DNA from: a phage
Reading direction: 5' to 3' (one strand)
DNA: 64,000 nt
Sequence record: PV419677.1
Each line of letters opens with the position of its first letter. The stretch's first letter is position 1. Positions 1 to 9,335 of this stretch are shown in pieces. A program made the translations under genes and the position numbers. The notes under the pieces were generated by a model that saw only the letters and a list, made by a program, of their open reading frames with translations, searched no databases and had not been told where the DNA came from.

Positions 1-158
1 GTCAAATTGTGTGGCAGGTCTTGACGAATCCACGCTTTATAAAGCGCTTCTTTAATCGGACCTGCAAGCTGCCACTTTGTTCCGTTTTGACTAATAACAT
101 AATCAGCAGTCGTATCTTTACCACTGCGTTTTTTACCCACAATCGCAATTAATTTCAT
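1..158 (-). CDS. 1: dNMP kinase (T4 gene 1), N-terminal portion only; ORF runs off the window start
   Basis: Reverse translation from ATG at 158 gives MKLIAIVGKKRSGKDTTADYVISQNGTKWQLAGPIKEALYKAW..., with P-loop GKKRSGKDT and a close match to the recalled T4 gp1 N-terminus; start overlaps the upstream stop (ATGA). Confidence 0.7.
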   Translation of the reverse strand, partial: MKLIAIVGKKRSGKDTTADYVISQNGTKWQLAGPIKEALYKAWIRQDLPHNL

Positions 159-754
159 ACGTTTCTCATAGATGGATGCATTGACTTAGACCTGATTTCC
201 TGTTGCATTGCTGCATTACTATCAATCTGTGGTCTACCTTCTATTATTATACCATCAATTTCTACAGCAAAAGACTTAAAGTTAAAAGTTGCTGTTGCAT
301 TGATAGCCGGGTCAGAATCTTCTTTATATGAGTACTGAATCTCTGACAGGTCGGACGGCCATGCTCCATAGTAATGGATTGACATGACAATTTTGTCCTT
401 GTTGTTATCTAAGATATGAAGCGTGACCGCTTCGGGGCGACCCTTCGGATGCCATGCTTTTGATTCGTGTGTGATGTAGTTGTTGAGCGAGAGCATCCAT
501 TTATAGATGTCAAGCCATGCTCTTAAGTCTTTGTCACACAGAAAGTTAACAATCAGTGGGTCGAATTCTATTGTACTACCAGGAAGGCTGGAGCGATTTA
601 TACCTTGTGTTCCGCCCGGAACATCCGTCACAGGAATGTGAACTCCAGGGAGGGTAACATCTTGAACGTTGAGTTTAAAGGTCTGTGTGAGGTTTGAATC
701 GCTTACCTCTAATATAAAGTTAGTCGTGTTAGTTTGATTATATAAACCTGACAT
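155..754 (-). CDS. 3: tail completion / sheath stabilizer protein gp3 (assigned by position between genes 1 and 2)
   Basis: 199 aa ORF in track; SD AAGGTG upstream of ATG at 754; synteny 1-3-2-4 as in T4; sequence not independently recognised. Confidence 0.5.
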   Translation of the reverse strand: MSGLYNQTNTTNFILEVSDSNLTQTFKLNVQDVTLPGVHIPVTDVPGGTQGINRSSLPGSTIEFDPLIVNFLCDKDLRAWLDIYKWMLSLNNYITHESKAWHPKGRPEAVTLHILDNNKDKIVMSIHYYGAWPSDLSEIQYSYKEDSDPAINATATFNFKSFAVEIDGIIIEGRPQIDSNAAMQQEIRSKSMHPSMRNV

Positions 755-766
755 AATGCACCTTGT

Positions 767-804
767 TTGCTTTAAAACAATCAGTGTTATAATGGTTCTA
801 GACC
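767..804 (+). promoter_or_regulatory. MotA-type middle promoter module (TTGCTTTA, 13 nt, TATAAT) followed by palindromic element GGTTCTAGACC; oriented antisense to the downstream HNH gene
   Basis: TTGCTTTA at 767-774, TATAAT at 788-793, GGTTCTAGACC at 794-804; same module recurs at 37917-37955, 43231-43266, 61727-61764 and in variant form at 27761-27797. Confidence 0.45.
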
Positions 805-839
805 TTTTGTCCTTACCAATAACACTGACCGATAATAGA

Positions 840-1514
840 TTATTTTATTAATGTGTTAAGTCTTAGCTTAGTCATAAACGGATAACGTTCCAACATTGGC
901 TTTACCCAGTATCGAGGATGCAATTCCTTTTTATATGCTAGGACCAACTCTCGAGCTTGCTCGACGGTATCAACTCCGAAGTTTTTACACATTTCTTGCC
1001 TATCTTTTTCCCACCGGCGCTTTCTCAATTCATCCTGAATCTCTTTATTTTTAAAATGTTCATTATTGCGAGAATGTTTTGTACCCTTGGTTGGACTGTA
1101 ATGTCTTCCTTTGACAAACCCATCCGGAACATCTTCCCATGGAAATAGTTTTATCGATTTGACACCATTATTAAAGTAAACTTTACCGGTTTGACTTTTA
1201 GAAATATTGTCAGCGTGCCTACGTCTTAACCAACCAAATAATTTATTATTGCGTTTCAAATACTTGCTTGACTGACTCATAGATGTGGCGGCAAAACTTA
1301 AACCTGGATTTGTATGATATATTTTAACCAATAGTTGATGGGCTACATAATGTTCCTCTGGAGTCAAATCGACCAGATTATCTGGGTCATTGGAACCGCC
1401 CATACATTTTGGAATGATGTGATGAGATTCTTTATATGAAATCAGGACCCTATTACGGGCCCTTTCAATTAACGATAAATATATAAACTGATAATTCAAA
1501 GTGAATTTCTCCAT
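840..1514 (-). CDS. HNH homing endonuclease (freestanding, Mob-like)
   Basis: Motif [31 protein letters not shown] is a classic HNH core; AT-rich relative to neighbours; absent from this position in T4; start overlaps the 3' end of gene 2 by 19 nt. Confidence 0.8.
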
Positions 1515-2332
1515 ACTTTCTGTGAAGAAAATCTTTTGCCTTTTGAAAAAAACTGCTGAAGGGGGAGTAATACAACGTTTGCCCAGTCGCTGGGCTTGAT
1601 TTCAGTGATAGTACCTTTTATATTGCCAGGTATATATGCTTTAATCATCTGGTCAGCCCCTTTAAATCCCTTCACCTTTGACCAATCAATCTTCAGATGA
1701 GTCTTGTTTGTAATCGTAGGAGTATTGGCATATTGTTTAAGAAGTTCCTCAAGGAACTCTTGACGTGCCTTCGGTGGAATATAGTGCAAGTTCAAACCAT
1801 ACATCAAATTGTGCTTACCTAGCCCAAGATAAATGATTAACGGATATTTGTCCCAGTATGGAAGAGTATCCTTATGCTTTGCATCATAGATATAAGCATA
1901 AAGTTTGCCCGGTTGAGGTTTAGCCGTTACGTGCCCACGAACTGATTTCTTAATTGTCTCTGCGAACCATCTGGCAGATTTGGTGTTGCTTGCAGCACCT
2001 TCGTTAGCAATCTTATCTCTTATGCTCTTTCTAAAGCTATTCACCATTATCAGCTGGCGTTCTGCCTTCGTAAGTTTACCAGCAGGTTTCTTTTTGAGTT
2101 TAGATACTTTATAAGCAGTCTGAATTCTTGAATTGTATCTTGACATGCTTTTGGTAAAGGTCGAATAGTTGATTCCTTTCTCTTCAGCAAACTTCTTCGA
2201 GGTCATTCCCTTTTCTTTTGCTGTATAAAATTCAACCCCTATCTCAACCCATTGTTGTTCGGATTTACTGGGTTTCGGACCTGGTTTATCTGCAGATTCA
2301 TTGATAAATGTAAAAATACTCATCCTTTCCAT
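1496..2332 (-). CDS. 2: gp2 DNA end-protector protein
   Basis: 278 aa (T4 gp2 about 274 aa); synteny between genes 3 and 4. Confidence 0.75.
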
Positions 2333-3048
2333 CCTTCTATAAAATTAATCAAATCATTTTTTAAATAGTATGGTAAGGTTTCTGTATAGCCATCGACCAT
2401 AATATCTTTATTCAAATAACCTCTGTCTTTTATATATAATACAGATATTGCGGATTCTAACATTTTGGCTTGTGCACCCAGTTCAAATTCTCGATAATAT
2501 AATTTGGAACTAATGCATTTGGAAAAATGATTTTGCTGCCACAATCTAAAATCATGATTGGAAGTTATACCATACTTTAAAGCAGTTCCGCCCGGATATT
2601 CTATTTTATTAACATAAACAATAGCAGGTTTCTTTGCGTTAAATCCTTTGTGACAACAGTTTGGACATCCTTTGTTTTTTGTTGTAAAGTTGTTTAGATT
2701 TGTAATCCAACTGGTTGAACATGTAGAACACTTTATATAGGCTTTTGATTTTGTAAAAGTTGAATATGTGGTATCCCATTTATCAAAACTATACAATGGA
2801 TTCACGGAATTTATTCTTGTGATTGCATCTAATTCAGATATTAATTTGCTTTCACCATAAGAACGTTTTAAATTACAATTAGAACACCAACTTTTTGTTT
2901 TTAACTTATGCTTTAAAACAGTTGCTTTGTATTTGCATGTTTCTTCACATATAAAGCACTTTACAAATATCAAAGTTTTTGATTTATTAAAATCGCCTTG
3001 TCCCACTATCTCGCCATTTGTGATGTTAAAATCTGAACAATCGTACAT
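2320..3048 (-). CDS. Cys-rich protein (four CxxC pairs) with GIY-YIG-like C-terminal half; putative nuclease inserted between genes 2 and 4
   Basis: N-terminal [23 protein letters not shown]; C-terminal [29 protein letters not shown]...YREFELG resembles the GIY(10-11)YIG, Arg and Glu pattern of I-TevI-type domains; start ATG overlaps gp4 stop (TAATG), stop overlaps gp2 start. Confidence 0.45.
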
Positions 3049-3500
3049 TATAAACCCTTATATCCCATTTTTCTAAGCGCATCTTCAGTAATCAATCTAA
3101 ACTGGATGCCCATTTTATCGGCTACGGCCTGCGCTGCTTTCCACTTATCCTTGTTGACGGCCCAAGTGTACATTTCGTTCATGAATCTCTTCTTGCTCGC
3201 GGCAGTCGTATTAACTGGTTTTGCTGGAGGCCTTGTTTCCTTTTTGGGTTTGACCTCAAAGAAAAACTGTTGTCCATTTGAGAATTTCACCCACATATCC
3301 ATGTAATATCTGCGTTTTTTACCATCCGCATTACTGAAATATGGAATAATTACGGTCTCTGACCCCCATTGCACCACATCTGGATGATTATCCAACCAGT
3401 TAAATACAAATTTTTCCCAGTTTGACCTGTATGTGATTTTCTTCCAGTCTCCTTTGTACTTGGCAACGTTTTTTGGCTGCCACTTCCCGGAGTATGCCAT
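3048..3500 (-). CDS. 4: gp4 head completion protein
   Basis: 150 aa, same length as T4 gp4; SD AGGAGG before ATG at 3500; synteny. Confidence 0.75.
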   Translation of the reverse strand: MAYSGKWQPKNVAKYKGDWKKITYRSNWEKFVFNWLDNHPDVVQWGSETVIIPYFSNADGKKRRYYMDMWVKFSNGQQFFFEVKPKKETRPPAKPVNTTAASKKRFMNEMYTWAVNKDKWKAAQAVADKMGIQFRLITEDALRKMGYKGL

Positions 3501-3548
3501 ATAGCCTCCTAATAAATATTGATATACTTATTTATAAATGGAGGCTTT

Positions 3549-6422: not shown

Positions 6423-6715
6423 TGGCTGGATTAAGTTTTAATCAATGTGTTACAGCAGGCCACGAAGCATGGCCGCCGACTGTAATTAATGCAACTCAAG
6501 GTAAAGTATTCACCGGGGGAATTCCAGTATTAGTTGCCGGAGACCCTATTACCGAGCATACCGAAATTAAAAAACCATATGAAACCCATGGCGGAGTAAC
6601 ACAACCAAGAACTTCAAAGGTATTCGTCACCGGTAAGAAAGCTGTTCAAATGGCAGACCCGATTTCATGTGGTGATACTGTGGCTCAAGCCTCGGGGAAG
6701 GTGTTCATAAAATGA
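6422..6715 (+). CDS. 5.4: gp5.4 PAAR-repeat spike tip protein
   Basis: 97 aa (same as T4 gp5.4), position after 5.1. Confidence 0.75.
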
Positions 6716-7389
6716 ATAAAGAATTTAATTTTGTGTATATAACCACAAACCTTAAAAATGGTAAAAAGTATATAGGTAAACATTCCACGGATGATATGTT
6801 TGATGGATATTATGGTACAGGAGAGCTTATCAAAAAAGCTTATAAAAAATATGGAAAGGATTTGTTTGAGACAAAAATAATAAAATTTTTTGATACTGAA
6901 GATGAGGCTTACGACTACGAAGAATTTTTAGTAGACGAATCTATAATTTATGATGATAGATATTATAATATAGATTTGGGTGGCAAAGGAAGTATGCGAG
7001 GAAGAAAACATAAGGAATCTTCAAAGAAGCAAATATCAGACAAAATGAAGGGTAGGTCAAAGCCACCACGAAGTAAAGAATATATTGAAAATTTTGAAAA
7101 AGCTATGGCCAAAAGGAGAAAGCCTAAACCACCTCCTAAGCCGAGGGTTTTTGTTAGAGGAGAAGAACATCCTTTATATAAAAGATCAAGACCGCAATCT
7201 GTTATTGACCTATGTAAACTTAATAATAGAAAACACCCCATATGGCAATCATATGATATTTTATTCAAATTATGGAAAGAAAATGATAAGCCAGGTTGGA
7301 GAAAAATGACCAGATTAGCCATTGAAAACGGATTTCCAAATACGGCTTATGATAAAATGATAAAACAATTTAAACAGGATTCAGAATAA
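6712..7389 (+). CDS. GIY-YIG homing endonuclease (Seg-like), inserted between 5.4 and 6
   Basis: N-terminal [18 protein letters not shown] (GIY...YIG), YYGTG, YNIDLGG; basic Lys/Arg/Pro-rich C-terminal DNA-binding region; strongly AT-rich; ATGA overlap with gp5.4 stop and TAATG overlap with gp6 start; no gene at this position in T4. Confidence 0.8.
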
Positions 7390-9335
7390 TGGCTACTCCT
7401 ACGAATTACCAATTAACAAGAACCGTTAACGCTATCCCAAAAGTATTTGTGGGAGCTACGTTTGAAGAAATTAAAAAGAATATCATCGACTGGTTATCAA
7501 GCCAGGATGAATTTAAGGATTATGATTTCGTAGGTTCGCGAATGAATATCCTGATTGACATGCTTGCATATAATACATTGTATATGCAGCAGTTTGCTAA
7601 TACAGCGGTTTATGAATCATTTATCGGAACTGCAAACTTAAGGTCTTCAGTTGTTCAGGCTGCGCAGGATAATGGATATCTTCCATCTTCTCGCTCGGCT
7701 GCAAAGACTTCGGTTATGTTGACATGTTCTCATGCTCTGCAGCCATCGAATATTGAAATCCCACGAGGAACTAAATTCCTGGCTTATGCTCGTGATACAT
7801 CAGCCGACCCTTATGTTTTTGTTACCACGGAAAACGTTATCGCGGTTAAAGATATTAACAACCAATACCTTCCGATTGTATCTCTGGCACAGGGTCGTAT
7901 TATTCGTACGGAACTTTTATATGACCCGAAACAACCTATTCTTATCCGCGACCCGGATATTGACCGCAAAGAAGTTAAGTTATATGTGAATGGTGTTGAG
8001 TGGGATGACTGGACGAATAAATCAATGGTTCACGCTGGTTCGACTTCCACCATATTTTATATGCGTGAAACAATCGATGGCTATACCGAATTTTTCTTCG
8101 GTGAAGGCGAATCCACCAAATCTGTGGCCGGTGGCGTTATGGAAGCCAACTATATTGGCGGTCTTAAACCTGTGCAAGATTCAACAATTGTTATTGAGTA
8201 TCTTCGTACTTCCGGGGCAGATGCAAACGGCGCTGTCGATTTCAGTTATGCTGATACGTTGTCTTATATCACAGTGGATAAGATTACCGAAAACTATAAT
8301 AACGACCCTGATTATGTCGGTGCCGATGGCGGTGGTGACCCAGAAGATATCGAACGTATCCGTGAACTGGCTGTTGTTAAACGTGAAGCGCAGATGCGTG
8401 CTGTCACCGGAACGGATTATGATACCTTCGTATCCGAAAGATTTGGCTCAATCGTGCAAGCCGTACAGACGTTTACAGACGCTAATAAACCAGGGTATGC
8501 GTTTATATCAGTTAAGCCTAAATCGGGCTTGTATCTCACTGCAGTGCAGCGTGAGGACATCCAGAACTACCTTAGCGAGTTCAACGTATCAACAATTACA
8601 CCATCGGTAATTTCTCCGGATTATTTGTTCCTTAAACATAATATCAAAGTGTCTTATGCGCTGAACAAATTGCAAGAATCTGAACAATGGTTGCAAGCAC
8701 AAATCATTAATCAGATTGACCGTTATTATATTGATGAAGTTGAAATCTTTAACAGAAGTTTTGCTAAGTCAAAAATGCTTACATACGTGGATAATACCGA
8801 CCATAGTATTCTTGGTTCGTCTGCAACCATTTCGATGGTGCGTGAGGTCCTGAACTTCTTTAAGACTCCGGAATCCGGCATTAAATACTATAACCAGTAT
8901 GGCAACCGTTCAGTCGAATCAAGCGAATTTGAATTTGTTCCGACTACAGGTGAAGCCTATAACGTTCGCATTGTTGCAACTGATAAAGATTCTCGCGGTG
9001 ATGGCAAAATGGTAATTGGTCCATTCCGTCCGGGTGATGTTATCGAAAACGTAAACATCCAGCCTTACCTGCAAGATGACTTTAATAAAATGGAAGCTCC
9101 GGCTGACCAAACAGTTTATTACGCAATTGGCGAAATTGACTATTACTCTGATTATATTTTTTGGGATATCGCTGCGATTGGATTGACCTCCGACCGCTTT
9201 GAAGTTCAATCAATCGAACTTTATGCAAGTCCCAACCAAGATAATATATACACGCAAGATGGTTCACTGATTGTATTTGAGAATGACCTTCGTCCACAAT
9301 ATACAAAGATTGACCTTGAACCGATTACACTATAA
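7389..9335 (+). CDS. 6: gp6 baseplate wedge protein
   Basis: 648 aa (T4 about 660), synteny. Confidence 0.9.
   Translation: MATPTNYQLTRTVNAIPKVFVGATFEEIKKNIIDWLSSQDEFKDYDFVGSRMNILIDMLAYNTLYMQQFANTAVYESFIGTANLRSSVVQAAQDNGYLPSSRSAAKTSVMLTCSHALQPSNIEIPRGTKFLAYARDTSADPYVFVTTENVIAVKDINNQYLPIVSLAQGRIIRTELLYDPKQPILIRDPDIDRKEVKLYVNGVEWDDWTNKSMVHAGSTSTIFYMRETIDGYTEFFFGEGESTKSVAGGVMEANYIGGLKPVQDSTIVIEYLRTSGADANGAVDFSYADTLSYITVDKITENYNNDPDYVGADGGGDPEDIERIRELAVVKREAQMRAVTGTDYDTFVSERFGSIVQAVQTFTDANKPGYAFISVKPKSGLYLTAVQREDIQNYLSEFNVSTITPSVISPDYLFLKHNIKVSYALNKLQESEQWLQAQIINQIDRYYIDEVEIFNRSFAKSKMLTYVDNTDHSILGSSATISMVREVLNFFKTPESGIKYYNQYGNRSVESSEFEFVPTTGEAYNVRIVATDKDSRGDGKMVIGPFRPGDVIENVNIQPYLQDDFNKMEAPADQTVYYAIGEIDYYSDYIFWDIAAIGLTSDRFEVQSIELYASPNQDNIYTQDGSLIVFENDLRPQYTKIDLEPITL

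Follow-up and report, generated by a model that had tools for sequence, protein, structure and literature searches.

Phage T4 carries 15 homing endonuclease genes (PMC2988022, PMC2993671). The Mob group is defined by a common N-terminal HNH domain and a C-terminal region specific to each member (PMC2790892, PMC2988022). MobE, encoded between nrdA and nrdB of T4, is described as a free-standing Mob-type HNH enzyme between conserved genes (Wilson and Edgell 2009, PMC2790892). Nicking and homing were demonstrated for MobE, and its spread by recombinational repair with co-conversion was shown; the mobE gene is promoterless and depends on upstream transcription, and a weak internal terminator was mapped 27 nt after its AUG (PMC2790892). 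MobB, encoded in the intergenic region between alpha-gt and alpha-gt.2 of T4, has its own upstream promoter, and its activity has not been determined (PMC2988022). Two mob-like HNH genes were counted in phage RB32 (Petrov et al. 2010, PMC2993671). The intron-encoded phage HNH enzymes I-HmuI and I-TevIII share with the protein described here the catalytic chemistry and the combination of nuclease and DNA-binding modules and, as is proposed for the present gene, home with co-conversion of flanking DNA.

The window analysed here is a stretch of 64,000 nt from phage sequence record PV419677.1 and belongs to a T4-like phage of the genus Gaprivervirus. Over its first 4.2 kb, identity was 100% with Shigella phage fPSFA (OR670333) and 90-98% with Gapriverviruses such as DK-13, RZ, VR25, VR7 and SP18. 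The ORF at 840-1514 on the minus strand, encoding 224 aa with an HNH motif, was present in the window as noted in the original prediction, and its location between gene 3 and gene 2 was confirmed by PHROG and Pfam matches for both neighbours. The downstream neighbour is gene 3 (155-754, minus strand; gp19/gp3-type matches), the product of which is the tail completion protein and sheath stabiliser. Gene 2 (1496-2323, minus strand; phrog_429, E 2.5e-78) encodes the DNA end protector and stops with TGA at 1498-1496. An extra ORF (2320-3048, minus strand; phrog_681 'endonuclease') and gene 4 (3048-3500, minus strand) are located upstream, and gene 53 lies beyond gene 4 on the opposite strand. The head completion protein gp4 (3048-3500, minus strand) showed a Pfam match to the N-terminal domain of TnsA-like endonucleases (2.9e-22), which agrees with the label 'head completion nuclease' in the record of one relative.

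The gene is an ordinary selfish nuclease gene such as T4-like phages carry, belongs to a familiar kind of element and had been annotated before. In the fPSFA record (OR670333), it is labelled 'putative mobile endonuclease (VR7ORF161c)' with a CDS at 840-1499 on the minus strand. The VR7 record describes the orthologue VR7ORF161c as 'similar to T4 MobB and RB32 ORF146c', and the RB32 record describes RB32ORF146c as 'similar to mobB; not conserved from T4 position'. Database labels for an endonuclease at the gene 2 site date back to RB32 (2006) and VR7 (2010). The gene had been called AT-rich, which applies only mildly, with a GC content of 36.6% for the insert versus 40.7% for the window.

The CDS of the Mob-type HNH endonuclease extends on the minus strand from TTG 1499-1497, the first codon of an opening 'MNY', to TAA 842-840 and encodes 219 aa (840-1499). 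The protein matched PHROG 655 'homing endonuclease' with an E value of 2.4e-56. Its N-terminal residues 1-107 were 50% identical to T4 MobB (E 2e-30, BLASTP), the best match in T4, and T4 MobC (3e-14) and MobD (1e-18) also matched in tblastn. The endonuclease and MobB both open with MNY and have the core HHIIP.CMGG..D..NLV.LTPEEH..AH in common, and it is because of this overall match that RB32ORF146c and VR7ORF161c were annotated as similar to mobB. Motif alignment, invariant columns and an AlphaFold2 model placed the HNH catalytic core, with a predicted beta-beta-alpha-metal fold, at residues S25-H54 (1338-1427, minus strand). Residues H26, H27, N41, H50 and H54 were invariant in 40 homologues and also in T4 MobB, MobC and MobD, and the pattern HH(26,27)...N41...H50...H54 aligned with the motifs of pyocin AP41 DNase, McrA and group II intron maturase. 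The HNH core proposed in the original prediction was thus supported, and the catalytic His and Asn residues were retained on alignment. The Pfam HNH model (PF01844) gave 19.3 bits, just under the gathering score of 21.4, which is a detection criterion and not a biochemical one, and homology rests on PHROG 655 and T4 MobB, whose E values lie far outside what chance would give. The PDB sequence search returned marginal HNH-motif matches only, and NCBIfam returned a single marginal match, to the part of the IscB model that covers the HNH domain.

In the AlphaFold2 model (pLDDT 89.8), the beta-beta-alpha core (E24-27, E42-45 and H47-60) reached a pLDDT of about 95, and beyond the core, four C-terminal helices were modelled as well as a beta-hairpin at 107-118. 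Past about residue 107, no similarity to T4 MobB, MobC or MobD was found by alignment or BLASTP. No Pfam match was obtained with C-terminal fragments, no NUMOD or I-HmuI-type DNA-binding module was found after the HNH domain, and structure searches gave nothing specific and, for the C-terminal half, no match that was informative. In more than 2,500 relatives, it was mainly the N-terminal 45-65% of the protein that was shared. The end of similarity to the T4 Mob proteins at about residue 107 matches the published definition of the Mob group. Judged from sequence comparison, the protein is composed of a T4 Mob-type N-terminal HNH domain and an unrelated, lineage-specific C-terminal half, which is presumed to be the DNA-binding region. 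It differs from MobB in this unrelated C-terminal half and in its genomic location, and MobE presumably has another C-terminal domain as well. The claim that the gene has no T4 counterpart was correct for the gene 2/3 junction of T4, where the gene is absent and gp2 and gp3 are separated by 106 intergenic nt, but paralogues encoding MobB, MobC and MobD are located elsewhere in T4.

Pairwise dN/dS values among the orthologues were 0.07-0.21, indicating that the endonuclease is under purifying selection. These values bear on the possibility that the gene is a decaying or inactive relic of a homing endonuclease that merely hitch-hikes with its neighbours. T4 does contain a defunct homing endonuclease, I-TevIII (PMC2790892), and the sub-threshold Pfam HNH score would suit a relic; however, the ORF was intact in all copies examined, the catalytic residues were invariant at low dN/dS, and the start context and the hairpin described below were conserved. 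We therefore consider a relic very unlikely.

Comparison of the gene 3/gene 2 junction showed that the gene is an optional insertion, with a presence/absence polymorphism and a precise empty site in close relatives. The site was not occupied in all relatives, and the assignment to the homing endonuclease type made in the original prediction was upheld. Relative to HNH-less Gapriverviruses, the insertion is 659 bp long and covers 843-1501 on the minus strand, with boundaries accurate to +/-1 nt in junction alignments. With a slash marking the boundary, the empty site reads ...AAATTCA/TAATCTATT... in SP18, DK-13 and seven other HNH-less phages, and the filled site of the window reads ...AAATTCA/C..(insert)..AAAA/TAATCTATT... 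In a longer read, the empty site of the nine HNH-less Gapriverviruses is ...AAATTCA/TAATCTATTATCGG..., and the six HNH-carrying Gapriverviruses show ...AAATTCA/C TTTGA ATTATCAG...(gene)...ATAAAA/TAATCTATTATCGG... with identical boundaries. The insert is placed exactly before the native TAA of gene 2, which now serves as the stop codon of the endonuclease, and the gene is free-standing, located between the last sense codon and the native stop of gene 2. By the insertion gp2 gains one residue (Leu) and a new TGA and is otherwise intact; its CDS is 828 nt in the window and RB32 versus 825 nt in SP18 and T4.

The same architecture was found in Tequatrovirus when RB32 was compared with T4. Orthologues occupy the same site in Tequatrovirus, Karamvirus, Winklervirus, Kanagawavirus and Dhakavirus, which together with Gaprivervirus make six genera of the Tevenvirinae. 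RB32ORF146c, VR7ORF161c and the genes of the Karam-, Winkler-, Kanagawa- and Dhakaviruses are true orthologues with 59-88% identity over the full length (59-68% for the latter four genera), and they have the same insertion point, start/stop overlap and 5' hairpin as the gene in the window. The sequence TAATCTATTATC (831-842, minus strand), identified in junction alignments, consists of the native gene 2 stop and a conserved downstream motif. This motif follows the endonuclease gene in Gaprivervirus, Tequatrovirus, Dhakavirus and Kanagawavirus and comes directly after gp2 in the HNH-less T4 and SP18. The 12-nt motif TAAT(T)CTATTATC (831-842, minus strand; loci L016, L017, L100 and L101) was kept amid otherwise divergent intergenic DNA, and it may be part of the recognition site of the endonuclease. 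A strong hairpin of 54 nt followed by UUGUUUU (778-831, minus strand; -23.9 kcal/mol, z = -4.7) resembles a terminator upstream of gene 3. Relatives without the HNH gene have the same sequence in their gene 2/gene 3 interval, and this hairpin is therefore resident and does not belong to the insert.

The start of the gene had been placed at an ATG 19 nt inside gene 2. The arithmetic was correct, but comparison of the orthologues indicates that TTG 1499 is most likely the start, giving a TTGA overlap of 4 nt (1496-1499, minus strand) between the TTG of the endonuclease and the TGA of gene 2, in line with the CDS in OR670333. The MNY start is universal among the orthologues and T4 MobB, MobC and MobD. 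Its Met is TTG 1499 in Gaprivervirus, whereas in the five other genera it is encoded by an ATG that, joined with the gene 2 stop, gives ATGA or TAATG. A GGAG Shine-Dalgarno sequence in the last gene 2 codons (1509-1512, minus strand) is located 9 nt upstream of TTG 1499. The ATG at 1514-1512 corresponds to TTG in VR7, RB32 and C6, it overlaps the GGAG at 1512-1509, and inspection of the sequence revealed no Shine-Dalgarno at a usable distance from it. The conserved MNY, the lack of conservation of ATG 1514 and the GGAG at 9 nt all point to TTG 1499. ATG 1514 was dropped as the main start since orthologues and T4 MobB, MobC and MobD start with MNY at the position of 1499, and the possible N-terminal extension of five codons (1500-1514, minus strand) is probably unused. 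A TTG start is unusual, and its assignment, which is comparative, is probably correct. RB32 has the same GGAG at the same spacing, made by a change of a gene 2 Ser codon from TCA to AGC relative to the HNH-less T4 and LH2; in a comparison of three Tequatrovirus genomes, only the HNH-carrying RB32 had the recoded codons at the end of gene 2.

Translational coupling to gene 2, as proposed in the original prediction, is plausible from either start, but the description of gene 2 as essential was too strong. Gene 2 of T4 is conditionally essential, being needed in recBCD+ hosts. Low-level translation of the endonuclease would come about by termination-reinitiation, coupled to that of gene 2. Going upstream from the endonuclease gene, the first consensus late promoter is the T4-type TATAAATA at 3529-3536 on the minus strand, upstream of gene 4. 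A promoter scan found no TATAAATA between 3529 and the endonuclease gene on its strand, and no convincing MotA box was found directly upstream of the gene. TGCTT cores occur at 1898 and 2117, inside gene 2, and late-like boxes with one mismatch at 1436, 1053 and 935. With neither a consensus late promoter nor a convincing MotA box directly upstream, a promoter of its own was rejected. The gene looks promoterless because the sole upstream consensus late promoter on the same strand is the one at 3529-3536, from which it would be transcribed together with genes 4 and 2. It resembles mobE in having no promoter of its own and relying on transcription from upstream, and it differs in this respect from mobB.

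A 7-bp hairpin, AGGGCCC-GUAAUA-GGGUCCU (1444-1463, minus strand), was detected by a terminator scan and by folding 36 nt after the start codon, and it was seen in folds of four genera. All eight orthologues tested carried the hairpin, with 96% of cells paired versus 12-59% in slid controls. Two of its pairs showed compensatory changes at synonymous sites (G-C/C-G/U-A and U-A/C-G), in a small sample of eight sequences. The hairpin was not conserved in 60 distant relatives from IMG/VR, found by protein and mostly from other contexts, which were used for this test only. The hairpin is therefore specific to the gene 2-site orthologues, and the idea that it is a general feature of the Mob family was ruled out. 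In both mobE and the gene described here, the coding region contains a hairpin after about 30 nt, and the terminator mapped 27 nt past the mobE AUG makes the hairpin at 1444-1463 a plausible analogue. It differs from that of mobE in its weak or absent U-tract, the U-tract being poor or absent in several genera. Given this analogy, we regard the hairpin as a plausible candidate for an attenuator or weak terminator, which probably damps expression in the manner of the internal terminator of T4 mobE.

In the phage collection, the junction was uninterrupted in 25 of 34 Gaprivervirus records and interrupted in the remaining 9; once RefSeq duplicates were removed, 28 distinct genomes remained, 7 of which had the gene. 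For Tequatrovirus, the junction was uninterrupted in 464 of 504 records. The RB32-type gene was carried by 38 records, and in 37 of these identity was at least 99% over the 200 nt tested. An exact 29-mer search of IMG/VR for further Tequatrovirus loci returned two, too few for statistics. This distribution bears on the possibility that the gene encodes an HNH protein of packaging or morphogenesis, comparable to the terminase-associated HNH proteins of HK97-type cos phages, which would work with gp2 and gp4 in head completion. The site within the head and tail completion cluster, beside the end protector gp2 and near gp4 with its TnsA-like nuclease fold, would agree with such a role. However, the gene is missing from three quarters of the Gapriverviruses, from more than 90% of the Tequatroviruses and from T4 itself, and these natural HNH-less relatives already imply that it is dispensable in single infection. 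In addition, its neighbours are gp2 and gp3 and not terminase or portal genes, and it is most closely related to the Mob homing endonucleases of T4. A protein of the terminase-associated type of cos phages was rejected on distribution and genomic context, and a role in packaging is to be regarded as extremely improbable. The relic and the packaging protein are both disfavoured because they conflict with the data on selection, distribution and context.

Between genera, the HNH proteins were 59-70% identical versus 67-77% for gp2. Since the HNH identity is no higher than that of gp2, there is no sign of recent transfer between genera, and the identities would fit a long vertical residence. Within Gaprivervirus, the VR7 allele was divergent (88% aa identity, dS 0.49), with flanks of 97% (gp2) and 100% (gp3) identity. 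The 5' end and the last ~65 codons of the VR7 gene (L006, 1339-1995) were nearly identical to the window, and its divergent central part resembled the allele of Winklervirus X20, with 70% identity between VR7 and X20 versus 64% between the window and X20. As far as can be judged from the alignments, this mosaic suggests that endonuclease alleles of different genera have recombined.

The last ~75 nt of gene 2 form a hypervariable, mostly synonymous island (1514-1577, minus strand) in haplotype alignments. Among the window and 14 relatives, the island was 72-83% identical between three haplotypes, and the flanks, namely gene 3, the intergenic region and the remaining part of gene 2, were 96-99% identical. 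Haplotype A was found in five HNH-carrying genomes and the HNH-less RZ, haplotype B in seven sampled Gapriverviruses, all HNH-less, and haplotype C in VR7, which carries the gene, and SP18, which does not. Between RB32 and T4, 16 of the 29 differences in gene 2 fell within its last 70 nt. The gene 2 end was T4-type in 448 Tequatrovirus records and RB32-type in 53, versus 38 records carrying the HNH gene, and the HNH-less LH2 contained the upstream part of the RB32-type patch. LH2 (L105, 157-981) and RZ (L010, 1340-2164) are HNH-less genomes with the HNH-linked haplotype of the gene 2 3' end. Such carriers may have arisen by partial conversion or secondary loss, or may have resistant alleles. 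The island cannot be equated with self-immunity because RZ, SP18 and LH2, which are without the HNH gene, break the haplotype link. MobE is likewise optional among close relatives and has a polymorphic patch in an adjacent conserved gene near its insertion, with its site and presumed target at the 5' end of nrdB versus the 3' end of gene 2 here. The island is suggestive, but not proof, of the target site or co-conversion tract of a homing endonuclease.

These data can also be read in favour of an old resident of the gene 2/3 junction that is inherited vertically and has repeatedly been lost by homologous recombination with HNH-less phages, its nuclease no longer homing or never having done so. 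Such a gene would have been kept for a benefit to the phage, for example by excluding competitors or by acting on host or competitor DNA. The divergence of the HNH gene between genera, which roughly parallels that of gp2, gp3 and gp4, its presence at the same site in six genera, the strong purifying selection and the HNH-linked gene 2 haplotype of the HNH-less RZ and LH2 are in agreement with this explanation. However, the gene is in the minority in both well-sampled genera, and the near identity of 37 of the 38 Tequatrovirus copies suggests recent spread. Furthermore, an island abutting the insertion is a classic signature of co-conversion or of a target, and MobE and MobA, the closest characterised relatives, are mobile nicking enzymes (PMC2790892, PMC2988022). 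On balance, we consider a non-homing old resident unlikely.

Taken together with the proposed expression, cutting and spread, the gene in the window probably encodes a free-standing homing endonuclease of the Mob family. Homing activity is inferred here from sequence comparison, in contrast to MobE, for which nicking and homing were demonstrated, and a search of the literature found no published experiment on nicking, cleavage or homing by the gene or any orthologue. On mixed infection with a related phage, the endonuclease would nick or cut that phage's HNH-less allele, either within the final ~75 bp of gene 2 or where gene 2 meets TAATCTATTATC, the junction split by the insertion. Recombinational repair from the HNH-carrying genome would then copy the gene and the adjacent gene 2 sequence into the recipient. 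Repair with co-conversion would explain both the patchy distribution and the divergent island beside the insertion. Going further, and only tentatively, the gene might represent an old and site-faithful lineage present in at least six genera of the Tevenvirinae, with its own selected RNA attenuator, that nicks the last ~75 bp of gene 2 and so maintains the hypervariable island in this virion gene, which is otherwise conserved at 96-99%. As part of the same tentative proposal, it might, in mixed infections, bias how the 4-2-3 morphogenesis region is inherited and act as a weapon of marker exclusion.

The original prediction had also claimed an unusually high density of selfish elements in this region. 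This claim did not hold, as such a density is normal for T4-like phages, with 15 homing endonuclease genes in T4 alone. Further nuclease genes were observed nearby and in relatives. The ORF at 2320-3048 (minus strand; 242 aa, 29.8% GC), between gene 4 and gene 2, matched phrog_681 'endonuclease' with 2.5e-29 and, at a sub-threshold score, a treble-clef zinc finger (DUF4379). It is optional, being present in DK-13 and RZ, with nothing at the junction in SP18, VR25 and VR7; P479, P8 and PSD2001 contain a 648-bp GIY-YIG gene at this junction instead. Selfish nuclease genes thus have a second hot spot in the gene 4/gene 2 junction. A free-standing GIY-YIG seg-like gene (6712-7389, plus strand; 225 aa) is located directly upstream of an ORF of 648 aa (7389-9335), and in tblastn its product shared 40% identity with the T4 SegB N-terminus and 42-43% with the products of two P479 GIY-YIG genes. 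In some Gapriverviruses, namely UPEC07 (L007, 3247-3954), and TH55 (L015) and phage 212 (L014) at 2588-3295, another Mob-type HNH gene of 708 bp separates gene 4 from gene 53. Its product contains MNYLKHY...HHIIPRCMGG and has a zinc-finger-like C-terminal end. In the genomes with this gene, the annotated gene 4 was 477 or 357 nt long versus 453 nt, and gene 53 of phage 212 was only a misc_feature. The 708-bp insertion may disturb its neighbouring genes.

The importance of the gene beyond correct annotation is small, as it is one more free-standing Mob-type gene in a phage group full of such genes. What is added here is the corrected start, the exact boundaries of the insertion, the fidelity to one site across genera, the covarying hairpin and the gene 2 island. 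For annotators, the locus is a warning that the ATG of the longest ORF is probably not the start in this gene. Natural pairs with and without the HNH gene exist, such as VR25 or fPSFA versus SP18 or DK-13, and RB32 versus T4. The insertion at the stop codon in six genera, the recoding that supplies the Shine-Dalgarno sequence, the covarying hairpin and the 75-nt island lead to testable hypotheses on the target site and the regulation of the endonuclease, and these comparative details are useful toward an experimentally tractable second Mob enzyme besides MobE.
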